Source: Tubulanus polymorphus
Lineage: Eukaryota; Animalia; Nemertea
Reading direction: 5' to 3'
Assembly: GCF_964204645.1 (NCBI RefSeq)
Contig: NC_134025.1
Coordinates: 25,152,299 to 25,216,298, forward strand
Length of the DNA: 64,000 nucleotides
Position 1 is the stretch's first letter; the number at the start of each line of letters is the position of its first letter. The notes under the pieces were generated by a model. The model worked only from the letters and a program-made list of their open reading frames with translations, searched no databases and had not been told where the DNA came from. Positions 1 to 20,916 of this stretch are shown piece after piece. The translations under genes and the position numbers were made by a program.

Positions 1-65
1 GTTAAATGTCGTATAAAAACTGACCATTGAACCCTTTGATAGTAGTATAATATGATATAATTTGT

Positions 66-1466
66 TTATTTCAGCATATCTTTCAAGTACTGGCGGGCGA
101 CTAATCTCTGTTTATGAAACAAATTCATGACGTCTTCAGCAAACTTAGATGGCATCTGATCATATTCGGTGTCGACCTCTGTCAGCCTTTCGACGGCCGC
201 TTCTTTATCGAATTTCTGACAGACCTCATTATTGTAAACGTCCATCGCTTTTCCCTTCAATCCCTTGCGTTTACACAACTCAAAAGCTAATCTGGACTCG
301 TCTATCTGACCGACACACTCGAACGCGTTGTGCTTTCCTAAACCCAGCATTTGGCGATAGTACACTTGATTTTCAGGCAGGTCCAGCAGGTTTTCCTTGA
401 ATATCGAGTCGACCAGATTTGTCGGCAGGTATGCCATATATTCTAGCCAAACGTAGGCGCACTTTGCGCATCTTTTGCACCATGGTTTCACCACGTTACA
501 CGAATGAGTATAAGGCAGGTGAACAGCACCAAACGAATTCAGCATAGTAAATATCAATACATCATTAATTGGTTTGAGAATACTGAAATATTTGAAGTTA
601 GAAATCAGGTTATCTCTAATGTAAGAATCAAACATCATCTCTTCTTCCTGACTCTTGCAATATTGATGATTAATGGGTAGTCCATTCTTCTCCCAAATCA
701 AATTCGGGTGTTCGGCGCTCTTTTCGTGGCCCAAGTTCATGTAGCGATATCGATATTGAAGAATGACTGGCAGCGATCCAAACACCGCACGAAGCGTTTC
801 ATCTTCTTGCAAGGTTTTTATACCCACATCATTCATGTGGACAATCGGACAATCTAAGAAGTCATCGTACATCGATATTTGATGATGTTTGCGCGATTTG
901 GTGCAATTATTTACTTGATCGCGAATAAGTCGAAGTTGTAAAGGTGAAGTGCCATAAATAGTGCCGCTATAACCAAGCGTGCCGTACTCGACTCCAACTT
1001 TTTCTAAAATGGTAGTGCACATCAGACTATCTTTACCTCCACCGTTCAAAGACAGCATCTCGGGCCCATCAGGTGGTGACATCTCAACGGGCACAGGAGA
1101 GCAACCACTTGGTTTATTCAAAAATGTTGGGCCTTTATAATCAGGGAGATCATTCTCGTACAACCATTGGGAATACGCACCCATGAAATGTTTTAGCCAC
1201 ATTTTCTCGAATGCTACCGTATGGTAGTGTTCATAACAACCCAGGTCGATTAACTTCGGTTTTAAACTTTGCAGTTTGCTCATCTCAAACGCAGCGATAT
1301 GGAAATACACCCTATCCATGTATTCTTTTCCGTACGTATCTTCCAGTTCGTAGAAATTGACATCGTGGTACCACAGTGATGTTGTAAATTGTAGATCACC
1401 AACACCATACACCATACTAATTTGGTGTTTGGCGCGGTTGTAACACTTCAACAAAACAACGGCCAT
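66..1466 (-). CDS. MurL-like (UDP-N-acetylmuramoyl-L-alanyl-L-glutamate epimerase-like) PP-loop ATP-dependent enzyme, tandem copy 1
   Basis: Intact uninterrupted 466-aa ORF. Motifs LNGGGKDS (PP-loop), HEKSAE..N, NHQYCKS, HSCN, WCKRCAKC and KHNAFECVG occur in the order recalled for bacterial MurL. Splice acceptor tatttcag lies 4 nt before the ATG. Confidence 0.8.
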   Translation of the reverse strand: MAVVLLKCYNRAKHQISMVYGVGDLQFTTSLWYHDVNFYELEDTYGKEYMDRVYFHIAAFEMSKLQSLKPKLIDLGCYEHYHTVAFEKMWLKHFMGAYSQWLYENDLPDYKGPTFLNKPSGCSPVPVEMSPPDGPEMLSLNGGGKDSLMCTTILEKVGVEYGTLGYSGTIYGTSPLQLRLIRDQVNNCTKSRKHHQISMYDDFLDCPIVHMNDVGIKTLQEDETLRAVFGSLPVILQYRYRYMNLGHEKSAEHPNLIWEKNGLPINHQYCKSQEEEMMFDSYIRDNLISNFKYFSILKPINDVLIFTMLNSFGAVHLPYTHSCNVVKPWCKRCAKCAYVWLEYMAYLPTNLVDSIFKENLLDLPENQVYYRQMLGLGKHNAFECVGQIDESRLAFELCKRKGLKGKAMDVYNNEVCQKFDKEAAVERLTEVDTEYDQMPSKFAEDVMNLFHKQRLVARQYLKDMLK

Positions 1467-1906
1467 GATACTGAAATATAAAATCCAGATTTCATGAATT
1501 CATGTTCTGTGATATATACCTTTGACGATAAAAACGGTATTCACACCAACATATATAATTGTACATATTGTAGTGTCAACCCTCACTATCTGCCACATCG
1601 GCCTTCTGCCAAATATGTTGAGTTGCCAGGTTTGGAAAATTTAGTTCATCGTACGTCTGTTAATTATATGGATCGTACTGCCCAATATGCGTCAAGCCTC
1701 CCAAATCCATATGGATTGATTGACATATCAAATGAAATCCATCTGTAAATTACTTGTATTCATTCATGTCCTTATTACATGAAATAACACACATATACAA
1801 CGCATGTATAGAGCATAGCCTAACGATCCAAGTAAACCCATTACGGCTAGAAATGACAAGACCATTTATCGGCCATCTTGAATCTGGTTGACCCACTTGC
1901 GTTTTT

Positions 1907-1996
1907 TATACATCCAGGGATGAAAAGTTACCTCAACGACTTGAATACAATGGAAAGGTTAGGGTTTCGGGAGGTAACCTTTCGTTCCTGGATATA
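1907..1996. mobile_element. Short fold-back (MITE-like) insertion
   Basis: Imperfect inverted arms atacatccagggatgaaaagttacctc / gaggtaacctttcgttcctggatata. Not seen in the homologous region upstream of copy 2 (~5000-5150). Confidence 0.45.
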
Positions 1997-2397
1997 CCAT
2001 AGCCCCCAACTAAATCGAAACTATTAAATCATGGTTGAATTACCGAATTCAAACTAGTTGAATATGGCCCCCAAATGCTGGAAAAACGCATCTGAGCACT
2101 TGAAATATAATTTTTTTCCGGGGGAGTGCCCCCGTCCACGTCCCTGAAGTGGGCTCGCGCCTTTGGCGCTCGTTTTCTGAGCACCGCCATGCTTTAAATT
2201 CGACCTAGCGAAAACACTGCATTATTATAGAGAAGATTATTAATACGTATGAAATGATGCTATAGCAATATTGTGTAATAGGCATCAGAGTTAATATTGT
2301 GATCCGTATTGGAGTGAACCAAAGATCCGTGAAAATAAATTGTATGTCTGATTATATGGGTCCTATATGCGTGCTAAAGAAACGTTGTTTTACCTAC

Positions 2398-2452
2398 CTT
2401 CACTTTATTCCAACTAAACTCCCTTTGCCTACTGGTACTAGCTCTATATATA
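2398..2452 (-). promoter_or_regulatory. Putative TATA box and non-coding first exon of MurL-like copy 1
   Basis: On - strand: TATATATA at 2445-2452, then consensus donor AAG|GTAGGT at 2398/2397. A homologous donor AAG|GTATGT lies at 5285/5284 for copy 2. Confidence 0.45.
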
Positions 2453-3167
2453 GATGTCTGGTGTTCTGACCTTTGTAGTGAGTTAGTCCTTTTAGTTCAT
2501 GGTGGCGCTAGCTGCATATACATGCCTTTATGCCTATTTTACTGAGAAAGACGCTAACAAAGAAGCCATATCTTTTTTTAGAACAGGAACCACGTCTATT
2601 TATTACTATAATCTATCAGTTCATAAATTCACAGCAGTGGTGTGTGTACTTTTAATAATCATAATGGCCAATGCTCTTTATATATTTATGTGGACTGCAT
2701 TAAACCTATCGGATTTTCATTTCGCTGTGAGCAATACATATTCAATCTATGATTCAAAATCGAATGTCGATATATCGCAATACGTTTAAAATGAAACCAG
2801 GTCCTCATTTCCTCAGGTTCATCTGATGTTTTGTGCCGAGATCGAGAGCGGGGCCATGGAAGTGCCCACAGACTATGTTCGTTTTTAATGGTGCGCACCA
2901 AACTTCCCGGTATAAATTTTTCCTTGATTTCAACACCGACATTGCAATGAGTTTCTTCATGTACATCGTTATATTCAAGTCAAAACGTTTTGAAGATACT
3001 ACTAAAAAGTTTTAATCAAAAAGCTAAAATCTAAATAAATTCAAATTAGATATGATACAAATTATTTGTAATATGTAAGTAACATTCAAGATGCAATCCA
3101 CCGACAAATTTGAGGGTTAATGTTGTTTTAGAAACTGACTATTAAATCTTATACGATATATACTTGT

Positions 3168-4568
3168 TTATTTCAGCATATCTTTCAAGTACTGGCGGGC
3201 GACTAATCTCTGTTTCTGAAACAGATTCATGACGTCTTCGGCAAATTTAGATGGTATCCGATCATATTCGGTGTCGACCTCTGTCAGCCTTTCCACGGCC
3301 GCTTCTTTATCGAATTTCTGACAGACCTCATTATTGTAAACGTCCATCGCTTTTCCCTTCAATCCCTTGCGTTTACACAACTCAAAAGCTAATCTGGACT
3401 CGTCGATCTGACCGACACACTCGAACGCGTTGTGCTTCCCTAAACCCAGCATTTGGCGATAGTACACTTGATTTTCAGGCAGGTCCAGCAGGTTTTCCTT
3501 GAATATCGAGTCGACCAGATTCGTCGGGAGATATGCCATATATTCTAGCCAAACATAGGCGCACTTTGCGCATCTTTTGCACCATGGTTTCGCTATGTTA
3601 CACGAATGAGTATAAGGCAGATGAACAGCATCAAACGAATTCAGCATGCTGAATATCAATACATCATTAATTGGTTTGAGAACGCTGAAGAACTTGAAGT
3701 TGGAAATCAGGTTATTTCTAATGTAAGAATCAAACATCATCTCTTCTTCCTGACTCTTGCAATATTGATGATTAATGGGTAGTCCATTCTTCTCCCAAAT
3801 TAAATTCGGGTATTCGGCGCTCTTTTCGTGGCCCAAGTTCATGTAGCGATATCGATACTGAAGAATGGCGGGCAGCGATCCAAACACCGCACGAAGCGTT
3901 TCATCTTCCTTCAGAGTTTTTGAACCGATAGCTTTCATGAAGAGAATCGGACAATCTAAGAAGTCATCGTACATCGATATTTGATGATGTTTGTGCGATT
4001 TGCTGCAATTATTTACTTGATCGCGAATAAGTCGATGTTGCAAAGGGGAAGTGCCGTAGACAGTATTGCTATAACCGAGCGTGTTGAACTCAACTCCAAC
4101 CTTCTCCAAAATGGTCGTGCACATCAGACTATCTTTACCTCCACCATTCAAAGACAGCATCTCAGGCCCATCAGGTGGTGACATCTGAACTGGCACAGGA
4201 GTGGAACCACTTGGTTTATTCAGAAACGTGGGTCCTTTATAATCAGGGAGATCATTTTCGTACAACCATTGGGAAAACGCACCCATGAAATGTTTTAGCC
4301 ACATTTTCTCGAATGCTTCCGTGTGGTAGTGTTCATAACAACCCAGGTCGATAAACTTCGGTTTTAAACTTTGTAACTTGTTCATCTCAAACGCAGCGAT
4401 ATGGAAATACAACCTATCCATGTATTCTTTTCCGTACGTATCTTCCAGTTCGTAGAAATTGACATCGTGGTACCACAGTGATGTTGTAAATTGTAGATCA
4501 CCAACACCATACACCATACTAATTTGGTGTTTGGCGCGATTGTAAGACTTCAACAAAACGACAGCCAT
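3168..4568 (-). CDS. MurL-like PP-loop ATP-dependent enzyme, tandem copy 2
   Basis: 466-aa ORF colinear with copy 1 and carrying the same motifs. Acceptor tatttcag lies 4 nt upstream of the ATG. Confidence 0.8.
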   Translation of the reverse strand: MAVVLLKSYNRAKHQISMVYGVGDLQFTTSLWYHDVNFYELEDTYGKEYMDRLYFHIAAFEMNKLQSLKPKFIDLGCYEHYHTEAFEKMWLKHFMGAFSQWLYENDLPDYKGPTFLNKPSGSTPVPVQMSPPDGPEMLSLNGGGKDSLMCTTILEKVGVEFNTLGYSNTVYGTSPLQHRLIRDQVNNCSKSHKHHQISMYDDFLDCPILFMKAIGSKTLKEDETLRAVFGSLPAILQYRYRYMNLGHEKSAEYPNLIWEKNGLPINHQYCKSQEEEMMFDSYIRNNLISNFKFFSVLKPINDVLIFSMLNSFDAVHLPYTHSCNIAKPWCKRCAKCAYVWLEYMAYLPTNLVDSIFKENLLDLPENQVYYRQMLGLGKHNAFECVGQIDESRLAFELCKRKGLKGKAMDVYNNEVCQKFDKEAAVERLTEVDTEYDRIPSKFAEDVMNLFQKQRLVARQYLKDMLK

Positions 4569-6031
4569 GATTCTGAAATAGACAATCCAGATATTTTGAA
4601 TTTCATGTTCTGCAATATATATTTGACGATAAGGTCATGAAAGCAATATACACGCATTATAATTGTATTTGTATATTGGACAGCTAACCCCCAATTACCT
4701 GCCACATCTGTCTCCCGCCCAAAATGCTGAATTCCCAATAAGAAAAATTACTTAGTTTATTAGGTAAGTGATGTTCGGTTTCTCAGCCTCCCTCCTATGC
4801 ATCCCCTATAGCAGTGGCATTAGTAAAAATGTACCAATTCATATAGATCGACATAATGAAATCCGTGTGTAAATTATTCGTATTAATCCCTGTCCTCATT
4901 ACATAGAATATCATATACAGCATAGCCTAACAACCAATGTAATCCCAAATTTCAGGCTAGAAACAAGACCATCTGGTCATCCATCTTGAATCTGAATGAG
5001 CCAATTGTTTTTGACGATGTAACTGAAACAAAATTATGGTTATGTCCAATATTCGTCTTCTGAAATATAGTTGATTTTACAAATAAAATGATGCCGAAAC
5101 ATTTTAATCATTCCTGATGATGTTGGCGGGAGAGATGTTTAGACAGGCCTGCTGTGTTAACCTTTCGATGTCTAAATCGGATATGAACCAAAGAAATATC
5201 CGATAGTGAAACTATTCAAGCGTATGTGTGACTATGTAGATATGTGCCCAGTATGCATGCACGAGAAATGTTCTTTACACATACCTTCCCCTTCTTGCAA
5301 CAATCCCGTCGACTACAATATTAGCTAATGTTCCGATGTTGGCAGTGAGTTTGCCGTTTAATACATGGTGGCGCTAGCTGTAATCTACGAGCAATTATCT
5401 AATTGTTAGATAATTGCTAGTAGCTGTAATAGGTATGCCTATTTATGTCACTAGACATGCCTACTTGGATAAACGTTAAAAAAGGTCACCGGTCTTCTTG
5501 TTTGCAAGAAGGAACCACGTCGATTTATGACATAGGCTATCAGTTCATTAATTCACAGCAGTGTGCGTGCACGTATAATAATCACATACGTTTTTTATTT
5601 ATTCGTAAACTGCATAAATCTGTTTTAACCATTTTGTTGGTGGAGAGCAATAATCGTTGGATCTTAATTCAAACAGAATGTCGATATACGTTTACAACGA
5701 AATTGTGTCCTCGTTTGCTGTAAAGAATTGCGGCATTTTGGTCCAGGTTATGATGTCCTGTGTACCACGGATTGACTGATAGTGAGAGCCGGGCCGTGTC
5801 CACAATGGCTTGTTCGTTTTAAGCACCGCAGGCCAAAATTCCCGCACTAAATCTAGAAAATTCAATATCTATAGTAAAACAAAGGTATTATTAACACCAG
5901 AATTATTCATTTCATAAGTATTATGTATTTGCCATCTATATATGCACTTGACATTCACAGGTTATCAATTTGGAATCGATTAATGGGAATTGTTTATCTA
6001 TTCTATTCGAGCCGTTGATCCCTGCGTTTCG

Positions 6032-7432
6032 TTATTTCAGCATTTCTCTAAAGTACTCTCGGGCAATTAATTTCTGCTTCTGATAGAGGTCCATGACGCC
6101 TTCAGCGAATTCAGATGGTATCCGATCATATTCGGTGTCGACCTCTGTCAGCCTTTCCACGGCCGATTCTTTATCGAAGTTCTGACAAACCTCGTTGATG
6201 TAGTCGTCCATCGCTTTTCCCTTCAATCCCTTACGTCTACACAACTCAAAGGCTAATTTGGATTCCTTGATCTGACCAATACACTCGAACGCATTGTGCT
6301 TCCCTAAACCCAGCATTTGGCGATAGTATACTTGATTTTCGGGCAGGTCCAGCAAGTTTTCCTTGAATATCGAGTCGACCAGATTCGTCGGCAGATATGC
6401 CATGTATCCTAACCAAACGTAGGCACACTTTGCGCATCTTTTGCACCATGGTTTCACCACGTTACACGAATGAGTATAAGGCAGGTGAACAGCATGAAAT
6501 GAATTCAGCATGCTGAATATCAATACATCATTAATTGGTTTGAGAATGCTGAAGAACTTGAAGTTGGAAATCAGGTTATCTCTAATGTAAGAATCAAACA
6601 TCATTTCTTCTTTCTGACTCTTGCAATATTGATGATTAATGGGTAGTCCATTCTTCTCCCAAATTAAATTCGGGTATTCGGCGCTCTTTTCGTGGCCCAT
6701 GTTCATGTAGCGATATCGATATTGAAGAATGACGGGCAGTGATCCAAAAACAGCAGGGAGCGTTTCATCTTCTGCTAATGTTCTTACACCGAAATCGTTC
6801 ATGTGGACAATCGGACAATCTAAGAAGTCATCGTACATTGATATTTGATGGTGTTTGTGCGATTTGCTGCAATTATTTACTTGATCGCGAATAAGTTTAA
6901 GTTGCAAAGGTGAAGTGCCGTAAATAGTACCGCTAAAACCAAGCGTGCCGTACTCGACTCCAGCCTTCTCAAAAATCGTCATGCATAGCAGACTATCTTT
7001 ACCTCCACCGTTCAAAGACAGTATCTCGGGCCCATCAGGTGGTGGCATCTCAACTGGCACAGAAGTGGAACCATTCGGTTTATTCAAAAATGTTGGGCCT
7101 TTATAATCAGGGAGATCATTCTCGTACAACCATTGGGCATAAGCACCCATGAAATGTTTTAGCCACATTTCCTCGAATGCTTCCGTATGGTAGTGTTCAT
7201 AACAACCCAGGTCGATAAACTTCGGTTTTAAACTTTGCAGTTTGTTCATCTCGAACGCAGCAACATTGAAATACACCCTATCCATGTATTCTTTTCCGTA
7301 TGCATCTTCCAGTTCGTAGAAATTGACATCGTGGTACCACAGTGATGTTGTAAATTGTAGATCATCGACACCATACACTATGCTAAGTTGATGTTTGGCG
7401 CGATTGTAAGATTTCAACAAAAGAACGGCCAT
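6032..7432 (-). CDS. MurL-like PP-loop ATP-dependent enzyme, tandem copy 3
   Basis: 466-aa ORF colinear with copies 1 and 2 but more diverged at the termini. Acceptor ttttag lies 12 nt upstream of the ATG. Confidence 0.8.
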   Translation of the reverse strand: MAVLLLKSYNRAKHQLSIVYGVDDLQFTTSLWYHDVNFYELEDAYGKEYMDRVYFNVAAFEMNKLQSLKPKFIDLGCYEHYHTEAFEEMWLKHFMGAYAQWLYENDLPDYKGPTFLNKPNGSTSVPVEMPPPDGPEILSLNGGGKDSLLCMTIFEKAGVEYGTLGFSGTIYGTSPLQLKLIRDQVNNCSKSHKHHQISMYDDFLDCPIVHMNDFGVRTLAEDETLPAVFGSLPVILQYRYRYMNMGHEKSAEYPNLIWEKNGLPINHQYCKSQKEEMMFDSYIRDNLISNFKFFSILKPINDVLIFSMLNSFHAVHLPYTHSCNVVKPWCKRCAKCAYVWLGYMAYLPTNLVDSIFKENLLDLPENQVYYRQMLGLGKHNAFECIGQIKESKLAFELCRRKGLKGKAMDDYINEVCQNFDKESAVERLTEVDTEYDRIPSEFAEGVMDLYQKQKLIAREYFREMLK

Positions 7433-8984
7433 GATTCATTCGATCTAAAATATAAAATTCACAAAAATTACCAAATACATAGTTATCCATGAGTATCAAT
7501 GGTTCTGTTCCTGTATATAAACGTACCATTAATTAGAACCCAATATGTCAGTCATCCGGCGCGCAAAAATGCGTTCTAACTGTGACTGAAATTCTTATCT
7601 CCCTCGTCACCGAAGGTCGTGCCCTGTGTATGCCTAGTAATATTCAATAATGACAGAACAGAATAAGAGCAGTTGAAAAGTTCACATGAAAGGTATTAAA
7701 ATGCATCGAGATTATCTTTCCAACTGCATAAAAGGCTTTTCCAAGATTGGCAGTGGCATACATTTTTTCGATGTCCAATATTGAAGCCTGCATCTCTGGC
7801 ACTGTCAAGACCCAACCATTACGAAGGAAATGTATCGTTGATACTATAGCAACTAGTAACTTCACTGACGAAGTGATATATTGCAGAGCTTTATTGAAAA
7901 CTATACATCGATACATTGTTACTGATTAAACGTTGTAACTGCATCAAATCTGACGTCAATGGAAGTTCATTGATCTTTGGCCAATCTTATACAACGTATA
8001 CGTGGTCGCAATACAGGAATTGGATTTGAATACACCGGCTAAACCAGTTATATTATATACACCTGTTCATAAAATATTCCGATATAAGGAGTTTTTGTTT
8101 TGTTTCATATTTGAGGCAATCCATATTCAAATATTATTTCACTAGACAATTTCGTTGTCAGTATATTCTAAGGTTTTACAATACCACTAGACATACCGCG
8201 TTGGAAAGATATCTTTCCATTAAAAAAAGGAAAAATGTATATGAAATTTGCTTTGGAAATGGGCGCACATTTACGTGCTACGTGATTATCAATGTCGGAA
8301 AAAATACCTTGACGTTTTCCTTACATTTTCAGATAAGGGCAGAAATTCCATTCTGCTTGAGCTCGGAGACGCGAAAAGAATGAAATGGCCTTATGAATAA
8401 AAAAGTGTTCACTATGTTTTGTCACTTCTTTCTACAACTTATTTACATGTTTTGCAGGGTAAATCATTTTCAGATTATTCTTTTTCCATTCATGATATTT
8501 CAATCGTGAATATGATTCTATCATTTGAGTGTAGACACGTTACCAAGGAATTAAATCCGTCTTTAATTCCTCCGTAACAACGTGGATTTGTATCAGGGGA
8601 TTGGATTACAACCGCGCCAGTACTGACAGCACAGAGCTATCAGTACGATATATTTTAATCTCAGTGTGCTTGTTGCTGTTGTTTTCTTAAATCCCCATTC
8701 ATTTGCGTTTGCAATCAACTATAAACGGTAGAACAGGCCCATTATTTCTCGACGGGGATTATTATTGTCATTCGGGTGGCTTGTATTGATCACGGTCTAA
8801 GCACCGCAAGACTGAAAACCGCGGTGAACGTAGCTATAGTACTGAGAGAGCTACCCGTGTTAATAAAGATATCATTAAGATATTCATTAGACGGAAATCA
8901 ACAAATTCATATTTCGGTGGCGAATTGGAATATAAAATTACTGTTCTAGGGTGTAAATCGATTTGCTTGGTGTTTCTGGTTAGA

Positions 8985-11900
8985 ATGGCCTCGGATTATC
9001 CAACGTTTGATGTCCCTCCAGAAACAGAGAAGGTAAATCTTAGTACATAAATGTCGTTACTAAGTGTTTAGCAGCAACTTCTGTACTCATCTCTGCATAG
9101 CAAACATCAATACTAAAATAACAAGTAATGTATTTTTATTTCTCAAAATTGTTGTTTTTCTTTTCGTGAAATTAGGTAGATCGTACGTACGGCAATTCAC
9201 CGAATTATCCAAGAACTGGGAATATTTCACCGGCAAAATTCCAAAGGACGTCTTCCACCACTCCCAGAAACAATCGGCACAGATCGGAGGATTCGGTAAA
9301 CGATGCCGATGACATCACTTCTGATAATGAAGATTCGAATATATTTTTGACGGAAATTGATTTCGTGCGAGAAGCACAAAAGGAGGAACAGTCGAGAATT
9401 GATGACGTAGTGCCGTCTGCTCCGAATGAATTCGACGAAGATGAAGTTTCGGACGCCGATACAGATTTGTCAGAATGCGAAGGTGCGTGACAACACGATT
9501 TCCTCAATATTTATATCGATGATTCATGAATGAAAAAGTGCAGGACCTTGTTCCACAGACATGAACTACATTTAACGACATATTCAGTAAAGATTAGATC
9601 TTCCAGTTATCAAACAGTGAAACTGGGTCCTGAATTCCGTCCTGAAAATGGGTTTTTGATTTTTTGAATCGCAAGACATTGGATCTCGACTAGATTTCTT
9701 AAAGATGAAATTTCAATTTCTATCTTATGGTCCGTTTCGAGATTTTCTCACTTGTGCAAAAATATCTGTGTATTTATATTTCGCAATATCATCATTTGTG
9801 ATAAGAAATTGCGTTACACATTTGAAATGCGTTATAGATATGTTTGACTTGCTTTGATTTTTGATCAAATCAAATGCATTTGATCATTAACTTTACATAT
9901 ATATTCTCTCACATGTCATGCTGTATTCAATCAATATGGCCATAATATGATATGAACCTAAATCACAAATAGACTTTAGTGCGGTTAATTGAAGTACGCA
10001 TGATAGAGTGTACACCAGTTATAAAACGGATTAAGATAATAGCGTAAAGCCCATTGTACGTGCTCAGGATCAATTAATCGTTAGTGCACGGATCGGCAGA
10101 CGAATTGAATTGAATTTACTACGAATAAATTCCGGCCAAAAACCGTTTAAGTTTATTCTGAAAATATTCCTTATTTGTACAGAAATAATAGAAAAATACC
10201 AACGTTAAATCGTATTCATTTGTGATCACAATCTATATTCAACGATGTTCTCAGGGTTGTACAGGTAGTTCGAGAAAAGGTCATGATTCTGATAAGCGAA
10301 GTACGTATATTCATCTACAGGCCTACCAAATAACCTTTTTGAAACATAAATGCATTTATACGTTAAACCGCCAAAGTCCAGATCGACAGTAGAAAACAAT
10401 AGAATATTGGACTATGGAAATTACATTTTGAAATTTTGTTTCCAAAGACTAAGCAGCTTATCTATTGACCCCTTAACCTATCACTGTTATCTACTTTGGA
10501 GCCTTTATCTTTATTTTTTCATATCCCATACTTGAATATTGAACTGTCTAGGTCATACCTTGGTGTAATCGGACTGATTACTCCGATGTCGTACTTAATT
10601 CATGTCTGAATTATTAAAAAATCGAACTACATTCAAAGGACTCTGAACTAATTTTCTAGCTATTCTTTCTTGTCTTTCTCCCTTTACTGCAGATTTTAAT
10701 CCGGACAAAAAAGAAGTCGACCTCAGCGGTTTAACCGGGTATATTGAAAAGTGTGAAGAACTGGGGGTCGTTCCGATTACTCCTTTTATCAAAAAGATGA
10801 ACCTGGAAACAATGGACATAAAGCACTACTGCTGTGGACCGGTTGGTGCCGAGGCAATGTCCCAGCCATTGATGGTAAATATTCAGACAAGTCGTAAACC
10901 ATTACGCCATCTATCAGACATCAGACATGATCGAAAAGTTTATGACTTTCAGATAAATACAACCTTGACAAAATTGAATCTCGAAGATAATGCTGTCGGA
11001 GCTGAAGGGGTGAAACATTTAGCAAAAATGCTATTAGAAAATTGTTATATATCGGAACTAGTAAGTGTATTCAGCCTTGTTCTGATGAAATATACATCTG
11101 TATATAAAATTCTTCATTTTTCTTGATTAGAATTTAGCGGGAAACGATCTTCGTAGTAACGGCGCTGAAGAACTCTGTACGGCGTTAAAAGCTAATCAGT
11201 TCATTACGAAGCTCAATGTTTCAGGTAAATAAAACGTTAGAAAATTGTTAAATTTATTTTCTAGCATTTGAAACGTCCTGGTTTTGACCCTTTGATTGCG
11301 ATTTGAAATTGAAGTTAATCTTTTTCTCAATTCAGGAAACCATCTCATAGACAGCGATGCAGATTTATTTGTTGAAGTATTAGAGGTATGCACTCAGCTT
11401 TCCTGTGTCATTACCAAAATTTTTCCATTTGAAAAACCTCCTAATTCGTACATTTGTAGGAAAACCGAGCATTACGAGAACTAGACCTGAGTCACAATGA
11501 ACTAGGAGATGCAGCCGGCGAAGAACTCGGAGAAGCCATAGGTAATGAACCGATACAACAAAGAGTGTTCACATTCTAACTTTATATAAGAAAAAAACGT
11601 ATTCATGTCTATAGAATACGGTATATTGTCGCGCATCTTTTATGACGGTATTGAGTCTTTCAATGAGCAATGACATAAACTGCCACGTGTCACCACCACG
11701 AGCCAATCTCATATGATATACCGCATGAAATAGAGATAAAAAGTCAATAAACTCTGATAAGATGTTCGCATGTGTGTGAAAAGTTCATTTTTCGGTTTCT
11801 GTGAAATTACTGCTTACATTGGGAGTGTCGCTGAGGATCGGCTTCACACTCAACATCTATCGGAATCTGTTGCTTCTTCTAATAAGAGTCAGGTGATAGA

Positions 11901-13284
11901 TACAAAATATAAAGAAAAAAAAATATTTCCTCTGCCTGTTTTGTTACTACCGGCTGTATAGAGATAAAAAGTCAATAAACTCTGATAAGATGTTCGCATG
12001 TGTGTGAAAAGTTCATTTTTCGGTTTCTGTGAAATTACTGCTTACATTGGGAGTGTCGCTGAGGATCGGCTTCACACTCAACATCTATCGGAATCTGTTG
12101 CTTCTTCTAATAAGAGTCAGGTGATAGATACAAAATATAAAGAAAAAAAAATATTTTCTCTGCCTGTTTTGTTACTACCGGCTGTATCGATTGAAGTAAA
12201 AAAAATTGTATTCGTAATTACTTTAAATGTTATGATTTACGCTTCTACCTAGCTCAAAATGATACCTTAGAAGTTCTGGATCTAAGTTGGAATCACATTC
12301 GTAGGGCTGGAGGAATCGCATTAGCCGAGGGACTGCAGGTATACACTAACAAACCCGATAACACACCTTGTTCATCTTATTGCAATTTCAAAACAAATTT
12401 CAACTTAATTGTTTGCTATAGGAAAATGTACGGCTGAAGAAGGTGAATTTAGCATGGAATGGTTTTGGCACTGAAGGTGGTGTAGCTATCGGTAAGGCTC
12501 TGATGGATAACCGAACACTTCTAGAACTCGATATCACAAGTAATCGCATGGATAACGAAGCAGCTGAAACTATCGCTAAGGCAATCAAAGTAAATGATAC
12601 TTTGGAAACATTGAAGGTAAAAAGGCCATCCGCCAATGCGTATATAGTTTTGAAAATGCTCAAGTAGCGATAATAATTCTTGAAATTATTTTTGCAGATC
12701 AGCGATAATGCATTTGATCATATTGCTGCAAACTCCCTTTTAGCGGCACTCCTAAAAAATGACTCATCTCAATTACAGTTACTTGATTTAAGGGTAGGTA
12801 CACGTAGAAGATCATCTCAGATACAAAATCAATCTATTCATTGATTCTTCTACTATAAAGAGTGATATTTCTTTTGATATCTAATCAATATTCATATTCT
12901 GACTGAATAAAACGAGACGTGATGAAGGGATCTAACTGAAATCCCCTCGGTTATAAATAATCTCTTCTAAAACTGAACATGATACCTCCCCGTAACAACC
13001 ATTGTTGATTTTATTGTCGGTAGAGTCCTTCTGTCACCAGACAGCCATTTTTCTATTCAATTCATCATTTTTGATCGTTGACACGGTCCTTTCAGAGCCA
13101 CGTCGTAAAAGATGAATTCATCTATATGTTGGAAGACTTGCACGAGGTCCTGCCGAAAATAAAGGTGCTGTATCGCTTTATATCAAGACTCCGGCCGCGA
13201 CCGCAGCCAGTGGCAGCATCTGGTGGATGTTGCGCCGGATGCAAGAATCCGATGGAAACGTCTGGAAATATCGTCGCCGAATGA
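8985..13284 (+). CDS. LRRC74: Leucine-rich repeat protein, LRRC74A/B-like (spliced)
   Basis: GT-AG exons in frame: 8985-9032, 9176-9482, 10693-10874, 10953-11060, 11131-11224, 11336-11385, 11460-11541, 12253-12338, 12422-12616, 12698-12793, 13096-13284. Acidic N-terminus with DTDL, then CEELGVVP and RI-type LRRs (LNLEDN, LDLSHN, LDLSWN, VNLAWNGFG). An optional small exon near 10256-10300 is uncertain. Confidence 0.8.
10558..10584. repeat. Short palindromic dispersed repeat, family A (CCTTGGAGTAATCGGACTGATTACTCC)
   Basis: Related copies at 23360-23382 and 28274-28298. Confidence 0.55.
11731..12186. repeat. Near-perfect 228-bp tandem duplication inside an LRRC74 intron
   Basis: Units 11731-11958 and 11959-12186. 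One substitution seen (tttcctctg vs ttttctctg). The ORF track shows identical peptides offset by 228. Confidence 0.9.
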
Positions 13285-13846
13285 GATTAATGATCTGACT
13301 TCGTCACGTGCTTCAAATATTTGTCCCGTGTAAACAAAAAAATGCCACGCACACACAAAAAATGAACTCGATTCAAAAACCACGCGCGTGGCCGACATGA
13401 GACGTCTAAACGAAAACGTGTCTAAGCCAACCGCACGGGGACGCTTCGTGTACATAAAATAGTGTATATATAATGATAATATATTATAGAAAATAAGTAT
13501 AATACATTCGACAGTATGTGTATGTATTTTCACAAATTTTTGATATTCTTAGTTTCTACTGATTTGAAATTATGATGGAGTCTCTTTTTAAAATGTTGTA
13601 ACGAAAAATGTCCACAACCTGCAGGCTCACCATCAATTTGAATTGCAAATTCGGGTCTTTCGTTCGATAAAGCTATGTATTTTATATAAATGCTCACAAG
13701 ACTTTTGACTAGACAGTTGAGAAAATCTTGTTCTATCCTCACTTGATAATTCCGTAAACACGAATCGCGAAACGGGCACACAAACGCAACAATCCTGGTT
13801 TCGTAACAGTTTACTAAATGAAAGTCTTATAGAAGTTCTGTAACAG

Positions 13847-15131
13847 TCAGAAATGCAGTGTAGAATCTAAAATGGGAATCGGCGATGTTCTCCTGTTCAT
13901 CATATTTACCTGCAAAATAGAAGGATTGAAATTTTCAGACAACGAATAAAAATCTTAATGAATATGGGAATCGAATGGAATGCAAGAATATTTCTAATTA
14001 GAATTGAAAGCTAACCAACCTAAATTTCGATTCAGAACAAAAGAAATGCTTTCATAATTTCTTTTTTCAAGTAGAATTACAAGAAATATTTAACATCATT
14101 CAGATATGTATTTCTATAATTCTAGTTTTCACCTTCATGATACTTTAAAATTGAGCTTTATTAACTCAGGCAGCACAATATTCAAATGTACAAAATGTTC
14201 ATATATTATTTGTAACTTATACATAAATGAATTTTGCCTAGTGCAAAAAACCGTCTGCCAAGAAAACAACTTATCTCAGATAAAATAAAATTACCGATAT
14301 ATAAGATGTTATAACAATCTGTAAGTTAAGCCAGTATGTATTACATGGTGCATTGTTCTACGATGGAATCAAAAGAAGTAGGAAAAATTCATTTCCAGGA
14401 GAGACGGGTGGCCTAAATCAAACAAGCGTAAACTCTCAAAATACAAAAACAAATATTGAAACATCTATCTTTTCATTATAATAAAGATTTCTAATTAAAA
14501 ATGGAATGAGAAAAGAGTCCATATTCATGTCAAAACTTACATTTTCGAATGAAATCCAGCGGACAGCATTTTCTTTGGTTGTTTGTAATTCCATCATGCG
14601 GACAGTTCGATTTTCAGAACAAGACCACTGTTCCTCGACCGGTAATCGCTGCATGTTCATCACATCGTGATCTTTGATCATTTCTTTCAGTTTGTTTATG
14701 TAATCGATTGCGACCCTCAGCGTTTTCACTTTTGACAGACGTTTGTGTTTGTTTTCGTACGGCACATGTCTTCGAAGTCGTATGAATGCGTTGTTGACCG
14801 CCTGCACGCGCCGTCTTTCACGGGCGTTCCGTTTTGCCACTAAATGCGGTGCTTTCTCTTTATGAGGAATATGTTTATAATTTGATTTTCCTCTCTTTTC
14901 CTTTTTTGATTGTTTTCCACTAGATTTCATCGAATTTTTCATCGCACAGCCGTCCTTTTCTTTTAAGTGCATGCACGAACCTCCGTTGTTGTTACCGCTT
15001 ATGGCGAACTCGTTGTTGGTTTCTCCGTGAGCGAAAGTTGCCATTTGGGACGAAATGTAACCGACACGTTTATCCAGCATTTCGGAAAACATGCAACTTC
15101 TTGGCGAACCCGGAGCCAACAAACTTTGCAT
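13847..15131 (-). CDS. Divergent achaete-scute family bHLH transcription factor (non-ASCa; ASCb/c or HLH-4-like)
   Basis: bHLH VAKRNARERRRVQAVNNAFIRLRRHVPYENKHKRLSKVKTLRVAIDYI. Main exon 15131-14541 ends at donor AAT|GTAAGT. Likely terminal exon 13909-13847 (tttgcag acceptor, VNMMNRR...LHF*); alternative 14412-14389 (ATRLSWK*). The unspliced ORF reads on to 14436. Confidence 0.8.
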
Positions 15132-15676
15132 TCTGTCGCTTATTTCCGTCGATTAAAAAAACTGCGTTATTGAAACTCCTTGCGACGCGTCGGAGCGCTT
15201 GAGTATATTAATTACAAGATGAAAAATGATGGTTTTTTAGCGAGCGTCAACTTCGGTGAATTCAAATCAGAGATTATGAGAGTGTAACATGCAGTAAAGG
15301 CGTGCAGATGATAATATTTTAAGCTGTGCTGCCACCCAGGGCTATATATCTCGCACAGTGCTGCGACGCATCTTCATTTTGGCGGTAATAAATTAATCTT
15401 CTTCCAGATCTCGCAGTAGCACGCAACCAATCACACGATAGAACGCAATCAAACTTGTCAGCCGCATGTGCATAACCATTCATCTGAACCGATACAAGCC
15501 ATCAAACTGATGAACTGGACGTCACTGCAACCGTACAGCAACGCGGACATTAAGAATTCTTGCAAAATAGTTATGAATAAAATCGCGCCATTAGCGAATT
15601 TCGCCTCATAAACAGTTAAGTGTTTATACCCCGGGTAACGTGGCTGGTTCGTGACTGATAATTAATAGTTGTCGGC

Positions 15677-15684
15677 GGCACGCG
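15677..15684. promoter_or_regulatory. Hairy/HES class C site GGCACGCG upstream of the divergent ASC gene
   Basis: Matches the core of the high-affinity Hairy repressor site known upstream of proneural achaete-scute genes. Confidence 0.35.
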
Positions 15685-18121
15685 TTTCCGAGTCGTTTGG
15701 TCCGATTTTGTCCCCGAGTCTTTTAACCGGATGTATGGAAATTGTTCCATCCGCACCAGCAATGGTAACCGGGCTGACGGTCGGACAATGCCGTTTTACT
15801 TCCGGAAATTAGTGGTATTTCATCGGAAATCACAAATAAAATACAAACGTGTCGCCTTTGATGTTACATAATCATATAACAAACAGACTCAATTTTTTAC
15901 GGTGAAGAAAAAACAATAGAACGAAGGGCTTCTGTGTAACAGTTTTGATATAATCTTTACAATATTATCGTTACAATTATCATAATCTCATGCTACGTAT
16001 TTCTGTTTGGCAATGGCTCACAATTTGAAAATGGTTAAACGATTCAGATAAATTATTTTTTCATGTATAAAATATAGAAGGCTCTATTTGTAGGATAAGA
16101 TGTCCTCTTGATTAAGATCACATTGAAAATGCGGTTTTTACAGTGGTGGTCTCCATGTTTTTCTACAATAAATTATAGGATTTATGCAAATGTATGCATA
16201 AATTATTTGGTTGTCGCCAACGAGATGCAGTATCGGTGGATAGCGTGCCAGACACCAGGCACGTGTATTAGCATTCATATTTTACAATCGTCACTTAAGC
16301 TGCTGATGAATTAAGCAAGTACCTGTCAAAACAACCACCGTTCATTAATTATTTTGTCCGCACCGCCGGATATACCAAATAGGTTAACTCATTAAAAGCT
16401 CACGAACTAAGTTAGTAAGGCTTTTTCAGCTTCGGTTTCCGAAAGGCTCTTGAGAAGAGGGGCATTTCTTTTTTATCTTTTGGCACCGGTGAACAGGAAA
16501 TTCCGAATTTAATTGAAAACAATGATATGAAATTAATACACACTATGGCAAAATGCTATGCAACACTTGCTGCTGAAAAGCCAAATCAGTCGCTTGCCAG
16601 TTCAGGCTGGATGGAAGATGGTTTGTAGTTTACCCTGAACTGAAATGTCCATATCAATGTACTTCATTTAAACAAAAAATTATGCTAATTCGACCAAATG
16701 TATTTGTATATGATTAGATTTTGGATCTCAATATCAAACCCTTCGTTTCGCTCCAGTGGGTTGTGTAAGGGACACAAAATCAAATCAAGTCTGCCAACCG
16801 AATAGAAAAGAAGAACAATCCCTCTCTTAGGATAAAAAAAAAACCACACAAAATAGCTGAGGATCGAGATGCACGCGATAAGATATGTACGCCAGTTTTC
16901 GTTGATATACTTAATGTAAAATATCTTCCGCTTGTTTTTATCGTGACAGGTGCTATAATAAACGTTAATTGAATTCTGTCAGTCGGTCCTACGTTTGTGC
17001 ATGTTAAATCCTGCACACTTCACTCGTAATGGGCCTCTTTTATTTCCTCGTGTTTCCTGACAGGAAAATTAAACTGCAGCGAAGAGCGCTATCCATCGAT
17101 GAGATAGGTCTTGTGTCAGAAATCTATTAAATGACAGAATTGATGAGTTAATATAATGTAATTGGTCGCTATCACGTCATCGCTTCATAAGTACATTACA
17201 GTAAACCTAACAGTCACGTAAAATGTCTGATTTGTTTTGAAATGTTTCTCGAATGCATTGTCGGTGTTTTTGTGGCGAGATTTAAGTGGCGCTTGCGAGT
17301 GACGTGCTTGTCGAGGCAGGTGAAAATTCGGAAGGTGTCGATTTAAGTTGACTTCCGGTCGACTTCCTGATCGTCAGTTCGTCTGCCAGTTATCACTTTC
17401 CTATTCACGTGTTTCGGTGATTGCTTTCGGTAACGAGGATGTGCGCTCTCTGTATTCTATCGCTTCTGTATTTCATTTACAATACCTAGATTAATCTATC
17501 AAAAAGATGTATGATTTGAATGGAAAATAATGTTTTTTTTCCTGAGTGAATTTCGATAACGTTTGGTCATAGTTACTATGAATTATTTCGAGTTTATTTG
17601 CAAGTTTTGCAACTGGTACAAAACACACAATATACAAACTTCTCAATATATTCCCAGAATACCATTGCATATAATGTGATATACAATCCCAATTGTAATT
17701 TCGTATATAAAGAAATCAAGAAATCAAAGTGCAATCTTGTTGCAACTAAATAACTCCAAATTCTGACACACGGAATTTCGGCAAACCAAACGATCACAAT
17801 AAGTAAACCCCGCACCCGTCGATCCGTTGCAATGAAGGCCCACATATATATTTACACTGAAAGGGCACGAATTCTCACTGATACTGGTACTAGATCGTCT
17901 AATAAATTTGTATTTATTCTTGTTTTGGCCCAGATGGCCAGATATCAGACGATGAAAATATCAGTGAAGAAAACAAAAGCTAAAAGCGAAGTTCCTTTAT
18001 TATTCCACTATTGAGCTAAAAACGTTTAAAGACTTTCACGTGAGATTTTCAGGATATTCATCATGAAAAAGAACTAAGGATTTGTCGAGTGTAAACAATA
18101 TTGTTTTGAATTTCTTTGCGT

Positions 18122-18133: not shown

Positions 18134-20916
18134 GTTGGCTACACTTTACTGCGTAACGGGCGCGTGCCGGGCCTCGCTCGCCCTAGATTCCTTTGTCCGC
18201 TATCTTTCATGGTTTCCCCTCTCTATAAAAGAAGTTTTTTTGATAATAAGTTGATGTCAATAGATTCCCGTCATCCAATACATGTAACCGATATAAAGAG
18301 AGGCACCACGGATGGAATGACGTGAGTTCTCTAAACCATGTCTTTGTTGTGATATAGCGCGATGACAATATCTCGATTCAGTTAAAGACTGCCTTCATGC
18401 GCGGTTTTGCGTGAAAAGTAAAAATATCAGGAAGTCACCGTAGAACAACCTTTGATTAAGTTACTTTGGTCGTACAATAATTTGATTTCTAATCTAAATA
18501 ATCCGAGCCCTTGCGCAGAGTCACGACTCGTATGTACTTATGTACGTAAATCTTATGACCGGTTTTAAATTTTAATATAACTGACCCGGTAACATGGCTC
18601 CTGAATTTGAGGGAGAACGGCTACTGGAGGTATGTTTGTGCGGTTAGTGCGTCCGCAACTCTTACGTGCAACAAATGAAATATATTTCAAGACTGGTGGC
18701 ATCGGAATTGAGCCATTAAATGAGTCCGGAATAATAGGTTTATTGAGTCTTTGTGTAGCGGATATATTTTCTATGATCCATGTACCCAGTGATGCAATTG
18801 CCCTCGGGCACGATCCGCAATATCATTATAATTAAATTGCCGAAGGCGTACATTTTTTTCAAATATGACAATTACAGCACTATGAAAGACCAATGACAAT
18901 CAAATCACGGCTCACGTAACGCCGTTAGTTTGGGGATATTTTGTATTTCTGAATACAATTAGACGAACTATTTGTTGTGGCGCGTGGTTTAAAAAAGTTC
19001 GTGCATTCATTCGATAACCGAGTATAATTGGTTACCACGTGAGTTTTTAAAACACGGTTTGAACCAATAATCAAATGACGAGAAACATTAGTTGAGTTTC
19101 TCAGATGGATTTCGTAGATAAGGTGCTATTTAAGATAATTGGCCCCGAATAATTTATAATCTATTAGACCTGCGTGCTTGTGAAATATCATTCCTCCGAG
19201 TTAATTCAATCGACATCAAACGGACATATTTCAAACTAAAATTTCAACCCATTCAGCGCAATTCAACCCCACTTGGACACGTGCTAATGTGTGACACGGG
19301 AACTACTACGCCGTACGTGAACAAGTGTTAATTTGCCCTGGTCCTGTCTCTTTTGTTTGTGGAGAGTGCGAAATCAGCATCGAGTGTCTCTTGCAGTTCA
19401 ACATAACTCCCCTCATGATTGTGTTAACACGATGATCCGAAATCTCGCTGAGATTGTGAAGACACGAAAATCACAATACCGCTCGTGTGTGACAACTACG
19501 TTACATCTACACACACGGGAAAACAGTTCATATTACACATCCGCATCTCCATCTCTTCGAATCGTTTTTTATAGATATTTTGGGGCATATAGAGAATCCC
19601 AAACCGATATAAAGAGAAAGATCGAGTCCGAAAAGCTTCCTAAAAGCTAATGATTTATTGACTGACTCCATCTTTCTCGTTGTATCAGTGTGGGATTATC
19701 TATACATCGTCACAACACGGACGTAGTGTTTCACCAACTGTTATATGTTGGGATAGCCTACTTATCGTATATTTTCTAATGATTATACTTTTCCTTTGAT
19801 TTCAATGTCAAAATTTAGAAGCCTTCCTTCGATCATGGAATTTATAACGAAGCTTTATAGTCCATGGCTCGATCAATGAGGGTTTGTGAAACGTCGCTGA
19901 GGTTTTCGAAGTGTACCGGGCTATTGCTCCAAAATATAGTACCGTATCTTTGAACATGTATTTGTTTGCCCTGGTCTTGACCAGCGGCGAGTTTAAGATT
20001 TAAAACGTGATGAAGTCAGACTTGAAGTGTTGCGTCAACAACCAAAGCGAAATGCCCTTTTATATTTTACTGACTTTTTTATGGCCTGTGAAATGAATAC
20101 GCTTTTAATGACCAATAATGTCTAACCACGCGCATGCAACAGGCGTGGTTGCTAAGGACGTATTTTACGTCATTGTTTTCGGAACAGGTCACCTAAATCA
20201 AATTCCAGCCGTAATTAATGGCTTCTTTTTGACGTAATGGCGATTGCGTCTACATTAGTTCGCTATTCCCAAGACCCGATACCGCCCAACATGTAATTCA
20301 AACTCATGAAGATGATAATCATCGACAAAATCCTTTGTTGCCTTCGTTAACATATTCTTATGCTGCGTTAAGCTATAAATAATAGCGGTGAAATTTATGA
20401 AAGGGATTTCTCCCGATTCTGACCCAAAAAGGCCATGTCTATATTGAAAGTATTGTTGTGTAACCAAGCTTTTCATGGTGTCTTTAAGCGTCGCTCTTTG
20501 AGTAAGCATCCAGAAAAAAATCCTTATCTCTATTTATCGAAGGCTTTGAATAGATTTCAAAAACGTTTTAAAACGTAATGTATGTCATCAGAGGGTTAGG
20601 TCAGGCACGATGCTTGTTGTGATTGGCTAGCGACACGCGTCGCGCTCGCGACCTCTTGACAACACAACAATGTCGTTCTTGTGCGACGAAGAATGCCAAA
20701 AAACAAGACATCAGACCACCAAACAAAAGATAGCAATACTTCCAAACGTACTCAAAGAGCGACGGCTCATAGACAACAAGTTGGAATTGTTCCAGCAACA
20801 CATTAGCACATCGGAGCAGGAGCACCGAACACGTAAATAAGTTCGGTCGAACGGCATCCGCTCAGTTAATTTGATTCTGTCAACTGGTGTGGTGACCAAA
20901 TGTCGTAAGTTGCAGT

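Follow-up and report, generated by a model that had tools for sequence, protein, structure and literature searches.

A tandem trio of MurL-like genes of bacterial type in a ribbon worm, with a tentative link to ergothioneine tailoring

QueC, Cap9 and QatC are amide- and nitrile-forming enzymes, and QueC-type enzymes make nitriles or amides on deazaguanines. MurL, the only characterised relative that we found for the family described here, converts ATP to AMP and acts one way, from L to D, on the C-terminus of a peptide (PMC8788868), and a review lists distant orthologs only in a fungus, cyanobacteria and an amoeba (PMC5808125). Several thiohistidine tailoring enzymes, i.e., 5-thiohistidine acetyltransferase, AshB, TgiB and RacX, are encoded by accessory genes beside sulfoxide synthases and modify the scaffold; AshB and TgiB are ATP-grasp ligases, and the RacX found beside sulfoxide synthases is uncharacterised (PMC13674229). 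According to the same paper of October 2026, an acetylase was the only enzyme known to modify scaffolds of the ergothioneine type beyond the canonical pathways (PMC13674229). The accepted view of animals is that they take up ergothioneine but do not make it (PMC9516567).

The window analysed here, a 64-kb stretch of the genome of the ribbon worm Tubulanus polymorphus, carries three MurL-like genes (Table 1). The open reading frames confirmed the original prediction of three intact 466-aa paralogs in tandem that adjoin an intron-rich animal gene, and the coding sequence was unbroken in all three. The copies shared 92.5, 87.1 and 86.5% amino-acid identity in pairwise comparison, the dN/dS among them was 0.20-0.26, and the trio is under purifying selection. 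The motifs GGGKDS (142), HEKSA (247), NHQYCKS (266) and HSCN-x4-WCxxCxxC (321) were kept in 3/3 copies, in agreement with the GGGKDS, EKSA, NHQY.KS and SCN-Cys4 motifs listed beforehand, but the FECVG of that list was not universal, being FECIG in copy 3. The Pfam match of the trio to T3SS_NleG (E 0.013-0.09, below the cut-off) was taken as chance, and a PDB sequence search with the trio protein returned chance amylase matches only.

Table 1. Features of the trio and of the adjoining host gene (positions in the window)
Feature	Position	Strand	Remarks
Copy 1 CDS	66..1466	-	466 aa, MurL-like ergothioneine-linked subfamily
Copy 2 CDS	3168..4568	-	466 aa; copy with spliced transcript
Copy 3 CDS	6032..7432	-	466 aa; earliest-branching of the trio; exact sequence absent from the protein collection
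5' UTR intron, copy 2	4573..5284	-	712 nt, GT-AG; ends 4 nt before the ATG
Non-coding first exon, copy 2	5285..5495	-	extent is contig reach
3' UTR, copy 2	2679..3167	-	extent is contig reach
Predicted splice acceptor, copy 1	1471..1472	-	AG after pyrimidine run, 4 nt before the ATG; not seen used
Predicted splice acceptor, copy 3	7445..7446	-	AG, acceptor-like, 12 nt before the ATG; not seen used
Flanking host gene	8985..13341	+	leucine-rich-repeat protein, ten GT-AG introns in spliced contig; head to head with the trio

The coding sequences had been described as intronless, which they are, but the gene of copy 2 has an intron in its 5' UTR. This intron was skipped in contigs of runs X2 (study P1) and X4 (study P2) and was unspliced in X1; the runs have no RNA label on record, and their RNA status was inferred from the spliced contigs. 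Only short and scattered contig cover was found for copies 1 and 3. The use of this GT-AG intron in transcripts from runs of two studies makes copy 2 a host gene and not contamination. The intronless coding sequences, together with the junction 7432-8985, which is bridged by neither one contig nor one long read (the contigs being fragmented), could still be read as bacterial contamination or a chimeric assembly, but this reading is effectively refuted by the spliceosomal intron, by orthologs on contigs of 14-16 Mb of Tubulanus and the trio protein itself on a contig of 32 Mb, by GC and GC3 values of the trio like those of host bHLH genes, and by the depth of run X1, possibly the assembly's own sample, which covered 30/30 bins of positions 1-16000 and stayed at similar levels on either side of the junction.

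Phylogenetic analysis placed the trio and two Tubulanus proteins in one clade nested in bacteria (SH-aLRT support 100), on a long stem (0.61) and sister to Thiotrichaceae-type sequences (SH-aLRT support 97). FastTree and IQ-TREE differed in the exact bacterial sister, so the donor is a lead only, likely a marine bacterium. The copies of bdelloid rotifers fell apart from the ribbon-worm clade, a single animal origin with bdelloids was rejected (p-AU 1e-9), and the named animals in the top 120 rows of each of three sequence searches were Tubulanus and bdelloids only. The nested position and the patchy animal distribution bear out the horizontal origin proposed for the trio, which are animal genes of bacterial type; the proposed tandem amplification is also supported. 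Domesticated bacterial metabolic genes of other animals are alike in being nested in bacteria and patchy, with a gained UTR intron and tandem amplification; the present family differs in that no report of it in animals was found in the literature, subscription journals being mostly uncovered.

The trio contains the Pfam domains MurL_N and MurL_epimerase_C, and the profile comparison of its family with MurL gave a probability of 100 over 356 columns, so that the expected MurL homology over most of the length was recovered; the PP-loop and the catalytic-looking set of E248, S250, NHQxxK, SCN-Cys4, H379 and FEC are common to both. Closeness to peptidoglycan MurL was not recovered. The trio scored 87-95 bits on the MurL equivalog model NF041275 against a cut-off of 700, and its mean identity was about 21% (21-22%) to 12 canonical MurL rows as compared to about 42% (up to 50%) to 31 rows linked to ergothioneine (egt) genes; in 19 columns that separate these two sets, the trio showed the egt-linked state in 10, the MurL state in 1 and neither in 8. 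With pocket residues assigned by alignment, the MurL-specific H58, K66, R196, H223, R298 and K380 and the motifs HxxxGxxYYK, GLGEF and NGH(V/I)P are not kept in the subfamily, in which GLGEF is replaced by VWAQW or A(F/Y)(S/A)QW, NGH(V/I)P by AAETP in bacteria and EDETL/P in the trio, an invariant Glu223 occupies the place of the MurL His, and an extra YSxSxYG insert is present. These alignments place the trio in an uncharacterised sister subfamily of MurL, distinct from peptidoglycan MurL. Most subfamily-diagnostic residues are kept by the trio, including Q100, W101, E223 and H247, and the animal clade departs from the near-invariant bacterial residues R102, A221, A222, P225, W269, G270 and P381, the loop around Glu223 changing from AAETP to EDETL in the animal copies.

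The gene context of the bacterial relatives, counted with tblastn, also differs from that of MurL. We found egtD or egtB in 35/87 subfamily loci and in 23/38 loci with both flanks of at least 1.5 kb; representative egtD and egtB neighbours passed the TIGR03438 and TIGR03440 cut-offs. The loci include near-duplicates (e.g., L068/L069 and L075/L076) and so do not count independently, and the weak egtB matches, at about 130 bits, might represent other proteins of the FGE type. At canonical-type MurL loci (flanks of about 1.4 kb), by contrast, murD was present in 8/10 and egt genes in 0/10. Other neighbours of the subfamily were betaine ABC transporters and the unrelated metallopterin ergothioneine synthase (MES): in G746 and G739, in both of which egtB was not found, the subfamily gene lies between a fusion of molybdopterin and class V aminotransferase domains (the MES architecture) and egtD. 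The egt-linked rows are scattered over many separate branches of the tree. Among 55 genomes of one bacterial order, egtD was above the cut-off in 8/8 carriers versus 10/47 non-carriers (Fisher p 3.6e-5, uncorrected for kinship) and lay within 5 kb of the subfamily gene in 6/8 carriers. In Acidobacteriota the subfamily was found in 3/301 genomes and an EgtD-family gene in 142/301 (a tally including G428, flagged unpublished, with G222 unscored in one scan), and the co-occurrence in 3/3 carriers is uninformative alone. Fifteen of the 38 well-flanked loci had no egt genes, including the whole DUF6600-linked clade, and shared no common alternative context; egtD was absent from G004 and only weakly matched in G232.

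A peptidoglycan role of the MurL type, or the modification of muropeptides that had been suggested, is what the automatic names in NCBI and UniRef and the two Pfam domains would imply, but it is very improbable. Neighbouring murD was found in 0/87 subfamily loci, and thus no murD2 partner; the MurL-specific pocket residues are gone; a glutamate racemase (MurI) was above the cut-off in two of five genomes, G001 and G004 (not found in the incomplete genomes G002, G003 and G005); and G211 has a canonical-type MurL (524 bits) in addition to this subfamily. Muropeptides already contain D-Glu, and MurL is inactive on the D form.

Since the bacterial relatives often stand beside ergothioneine genes and not cell-wall genes, the enzyme likely remodels ergothioneine or a related histidine compound with ATP. 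With somewhat less than even confidence, and with substrate and product taken from bacterial gene context, we propose that the enzyme activates ergothioneine, hercynine or a related thiohistidine by adenylation of its alpha-carboxylate with ATP, and that the alpha-carbon is most likely inverted to the D form. The PP-loop (GGGKDS) and the Cys4 site would act as in MurL and QueC to give acyl-AMP and PPi. Since the gene is found with the oxygen-dependent EgtB as well as with MES, and next to a C-S lyase in some clusters, the substrate would be what the two synthase routes have in common, hercynine or ergothioneine. The alpha-proton of an acyl-adenylate beside a trimethylammonium group and an imidazole is easily lost; the invariant Glu223 would take part in place of the MurL His, and hydrolysis would free the D form and AMP in one direction only. 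The steps that follow adenylation may be different, since the family does not have the His of MurL NGH(V/I)P. The animal could obtain ergothioneine through its diet or from microbes, or itself make ovothiol-type compounds (egtD and egtB queries had no match in the 64-kb window), and a D-type product might escape L-specific microbial transporters and lyases. The animal-specific changes in the likely substrate loop suggest that the animal substrate may differ, being perhaps a less methylated relative. The original guess of a D-configured metabolite thus survives in a more specific form, and its peptide-toxin part is possible but unlikely. For racemases, a co-occurrence of 0.8% with ergothioneine-type synthases has been reported (PMC13674229), and MurL-like genes are missing from the table and supplement of that paper; in the literature we found no D-ergothioneine or D-hercynine, no link of this family to ergothioneine and no description of the proposed reaction. 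The known thiohistidine tailoring enzymes have folds unlike this family. AshB and TgiB, which are not accompanied by egtD, target the free amine of 2-thiohistidine by acylation; for this family, which does occur with egtD, only the carboxylate or the ring would be free.

The fold leaves some room for another outcome on the same class of substrates. In the predicted model of the trio protein (pLDDT 96), the N-terminus is a beta-strand aligning with bacterial N-termini, in line with the predicted cytosolic enzyme with a new job, and the best fold matches (residues 134-350) were QueC (3BL5), Cap9 (9NTO) and QatC (9Y01), with figures of Z 13.4, rmsd 3.7 and 188 aligned residues and Z 13.1, rmsd 2.4 and 175 aligned residues, so the anticipated QueC-like PP-loop fold was found. 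As in those enzymes, the acyl-AMP might be captured by an amine or ammonia to give an amide, a conjugate or a nitrile, which we consider unlikely but worth weighing; the replacement of the MurL His by Glu and the further tailoring genes in the clusters (radical SAM, SAM methyltransferases and GNATs) would fit, but no amine-donor or glutaminase partner was conserved among the scanned neighbours, and the sequence is far nearer MurL than QueC, to which the profile comparison matched over the P-loop only (probability 0.6, on a thin 4-row template). Beyond the PP-loop Rossmann fold and the Cys-rich metal site, QueC, Cap9 and QatC share 13-16% identity with the trio and are without the MurL_N domain and the C-terminal helices, and the trio had no Pfam or NCBIfam QueC match. 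TtuA, ThiI, NcsA and LarE were also among the fold matches (Z 8-9), and class V PLP enzymes and disulfide oxidoreductases among the bacterial neighbours, so insertion or restoration of sulfur on the imidazole ring, from an adenylated oxidised ergothioneine product and sulfide as in TtuA, ThiI and LarE, may be imagined. It is improbable, given that the Cys pattern is of the MurL/QueC type, that the clusters already contain a complete synthase and that the Acidobacteriota counts fit an optional tailoring step.

Whether the animal enzymes left the bacterial substrate is a separate matter. They may epimerise or modify the residue at the C-terminus of a host peptide, or another small acid (a toxin, a neuropeptide or a histidine dipeptide), as the long stem, the changes peculiar to the clade in the pocket and the likely substrate loop, the retained copies (two in Tubulanus and three in the window) and the action of MurL itself on a peptide C-terminus would allow. 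Such a shift also seems unlikely, because most subfamily-diagnostic residues are kept and no peptide precursor was noticed beside the trio in the window; without a signal peptide, moreover, the enzymes would not meet secreted peptides.

The subfamily, named MurL by databases and spread over many bacterial groups, is a concrete candidate ergothioneine-tailoring enzyme. If this role is true, an animal with an acquired, spliced, kept and amplified gene of ergothioneine clusters shows that some animals chemically rework ergothioneine, and an ATP-driven epimerase or ligase is added to animal metabolism. A bolder scenario, which we offer as speculation and think rather doubtful, is that an animal lineage with ribbon worms among its members took over an ATP-driven epimerase of a marine sulfur bacterium, which makes D-ergothioneine or another D-thiohistidine, an undescribed mirror-image antioxidant. 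In this scenario the bacterial enzymes would be a widespread class for tailoring ergothioneine that carries the MurL annotation wrongly, and bdelloids may have captured it separately.

Two ideas of replacement found no support in the bacterial genes. RacX was found in none of 12 egt loci without the subfamily gene (44/85 neighbouring ORFs scanned), so that this racemase was not seen to stand in for the subfamily gene, a result that counts against the proposed inversion; that the subfamily gene replaces the C-S lyase was discarded as L137 and L139 have a class V PLP enzyme in the same cluster and MES clusters need no lyase. One SAM methyltransferase of the clusters resembles the C-terminal methyltransferase of OvoA, below the cut-off.

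The three tandem open reading frames (ORFs) of the original prediction were borne out (see the table), and they belong to an uncharacterised ergothioneine-linked sister family of MurL. The NCBIfam MurL model gave them 87-95 bits, its cut-off being 700, and when their profile was compared to that of ten canonical MurL rows, 356 columns aligned with a probability of 100 and 22% identity; the earlier MurL assignment thus holds for homology and fails for MurL proper. The motifs named before are present, except that FECVG is not found in all copies, copy 3 having FECIG. The AlphaFold model (pLDDT 96) gave QueC, Cap9 and QatC as top fold matches, for residues 134-350 only (QueC: Z 13.4, rmsd 3.7, 188 aligned). 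A long branch parted canonical MurL from the large subfamily containing these proteins both in FastTree (292 rows of 370-560 aa, near-duplicates removed) and in a quick IQ-TREE tree (47 rows). At the 19 diagnostic columns telling 31 egt-linked rows from 12 canonical rows, the trio has the egt-linked state in 10, the canonical state in 1 and neither in 8. The NGH(V/I)P of MurL is replaced by AAETP in the subfamily and by EDETL/P in the trio, and Glu223 is invariant in 123/123 aligned rows. More distant MurL-like proteins are fused with a flavin monooxygenase-like domain (P0241, P0246, P0264 and the L111 region) or with a Mur ligase (P0256, P0273); a cluster of 106 members (P0147) occurs in Planktothrix, and a distant homolog (P0236) comes from the diatom Stephanopyxis.

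Features of the window
Feature	Position	Strand	Remark
Copy 1	66-1466	-	ORF, 466 aa
Copy 2	3168-4568	-	ORF, 466 aa
Copy 3	6032-7432	-	ORF, 466 aa
Leucine-rich-repeat (LRR) gene	8985-13341	+	ten introns; head to head with trio
bHLH ORF, single exon	14436-15152	-	Pfam HLH
bHLH ORF, single exon	20896-21678	+	Pfam HLH
bHLH ORF, single exon	24315-24866	+	Pfam HLH
Inward-rectifier K channel C-terminal domain	58836-59294	-	domain search; weak match below cut-off

The ergothioneine link comes from 87 bacterial subfamily loci (4 genome, 80 metagenome and 3 genome-draw, some near-duplicates). The egtD or egtB gene was present at 35 of them and both at 26, an OpuC/EgtU-type fused permease at 16 and murD at none, whereas canonical-type MurL loci had murD in 8/10 and egt genes in 0/10, nine of them with flanks of only ~1.4 kb. 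Representative EgtD and EgtB proteins exceeded the TIGR03438 and TIGR03440 cut-offs. The egt genes were found at 23/38 loci flanked on each side by 1.5 kb or more and at 12/19 with 5-kb flanks; the other 15 of the 38 showed no common alternative context. In the order of genome G002, the subfamily occurred in 8/55 genomes, and egtD above cut-off was present in 8/8 carriers versus 10/47 non-carriers (p 3.6e-5, kinship uncorrected), within 5 kb of the subfamily gene in 6/8 carriers. Two Thiotrichales-order genomes, G746 (locus L135) and G739 (L136), have a gene run of a molybdopterin and class V aminotransferase protein (1,110-1,160 aa), a P-type ATPase, the MurL-like gene and egtD; no egtB was found in either (26/53 candidates scored in G739). 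Judged by its domains rather than by alignment to the Caldithrix enzyme, the first protein has the complete architecture of the metallopterin ergothioneine synthase, which the abstract of PMC9516567 describes as restricted to anaerobes. As the MurL-like gene accompanies two unrelated synthases, it points to hercynine or ergothioneine as the substrate. In Acidobacteriota, the subfamily was found in 3/301 genomes and an EgtD-family gene in 142/301, so the MurL-like gene is optional alongside EgtD. G211 carries a subfamily member together with a canonical-type MurL, and G001 and G004 carry one together with glutamate racemase.

Other neighbours recur at these loci. A conserved radical SAM protein of 500-570 aa adjoins the MurL-like gene in egt clusters (L001, L002, L007, L008, L011, L025, L026, L031, L136, L138, L139), and its long N-terminal part, where Pfam gave no match, suggests a cobalamin-binding type. 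An atypical P1B-type ATPase lacking the CPC motif accompanies the cluster at L013, L135, L136 and L138 (also L002, L007, L011). An MscS channel lies nearby at L026, L028, L029 and L113, in 3/4 with an OpuC/EgtU-type ABC transporter, which is an osmolyte-like cassette. L140 (G740) and L141 (G744) hold an intermediate subfamily, 29-31% identical to the window's proteins, beside methyltransferases, an ornithine cyclodeaminase-like enzyme and a PALP enzyme. The Saccharibacteria locus L004 (G004) has conjugation genes, a transposase and an iron-containing redox enzyme, and no egtD.

According to PMC8788868 and PMC5808125, MurL turns L into D, in that direction only, at the cost of one ATP and with release of AMP; adenylation of the alpha-carboxylate is a proposal. 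Given the common motifs, the first step would be the same here. The presence of egtD in the cluster would mean a trimethylated amine, with the carboxylate and the ring left as free handles. Histidine derivatives are prone to racemise once activated, and a trimethylammonium group raises the acidity of the alpha-proton, so inversion to the D form would be the simplest carry-over of MurL chemistry; the main alternative is QueC-style formation of an amide or nitrile. Judged by alignment rather than coordinates, the animal copies have extra acidic residues at 221-222 and have lost R102, W269 and P381. This suggests that the pocket was retuned, perhaps to accept a thiohistidine with fewer methyl groups; one example is ovothiol, a compound of marine invertebrates (PMC10903977). 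The whole reading, a bacterial-type ATP enzyme on an ergothioneine- or hercynine-type substrate, likely inverting it to the D form, is tentative, a little short of an even chance.

The Tubulanus proteins already bear the automatic database name "MurL-like". The parts of PMC13674229 consulted, supplement included, tabulate the neighbours of ergothioneine-type synthases with the MurL-like family absent and racemases at 0.8%, and state an acetylase as the sole known modifying enzyme. In article listings that largely leave out subscription journals, and in passages of PMC13547098 and the PMC9516567 supplement, no report was found that joins MurL with ergothioneine or deals with D-ergothioneine or animal MurL.

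The trio is a set of domesticated bacterial genes. Among the best 120 of 560 homologs, the closest were two Tubulanus polymorphus proteins (68% and 52%), followed mainly by unnamed or bacterial proteins at 41-50%, plus Adineta ricciae. The horizontal origin proposed earlier agrees with the quick tree, where a single clade (SH-aLRT 100) unites the trio with both Tubulanus proteins and has Thiotrichaceae, Beggiatoa-like and Kentron rows as its sister (97); FastTree placed these proteins in the same wider group with a different, unsupported immediate sister. The first branch within the clade is the deeper Tubulanus copy, which puts one duplication before the window's organism split off and makes the tandem trio a later product. 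A ribbon worm or a nearby lineage is thus the likely host. No further named animal joined this clade among the best 120 rows of each of three homolog searches. Adineta ricciae, Rotaria socialis and one EukProt transcript (P0112, P0122, P0303, P0300) carry subfamily copies with unaltered bacterial motifs in a separate clade, and since their contigs are only 3-6 kb, contamination may be behind them. Joining the bdelloid copies to the trio clade was rejected (p-AU 1e-9).

At the protein level copies 1 and 2 share 92.5% identity, and copy 3 is 86-87% identical to either. Their dS of 0.19-0.26 and dN/dS of 0.20-0.26 show genuine duplicates under purifying selection and rule out assembly repeats. 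At 6946-7296, a contig of run X3 differs from copy 3 at 12 of 351 nt, as an allele or another copy elsewhere. Read contigs were mapped from four runs over 1-16000 and four (two new) over 1-8600. The transcripts sought for the trio were seen for copy 2: in X2 (study P1), a contig 2,105 nt long matches 2679-4572 and 5285-5495, leaving out 712 nt, and X4 (study P2) has a contig joined at the same points, while X1 retains the segment unspliced. The segment is GT...AG on the minus strand, with 4 nt between its end and the copy 2 ATG. Run kinds being unrecorded, RNA origin was inferred from splicing; X2 also contains the spliced LRR gene with ten GT-AG introns. Similar acceptor sites precede copies 1 and 3, where read cover is scant. 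No single record among the mapped runs bridges the trio-LRR junction; X1, possibly the assembly's own sample, has depth in 30/30 bins, and the trio protein record is placed on a 32-Mb contig. The trio are host genes. One intron of the LRR gene, near 11730-12190, contains a ~230-nt tandem duplicate spotted by eye, and the three bHLH ORFs are presumably, from their motifs, an achaete-scute-type cluster.
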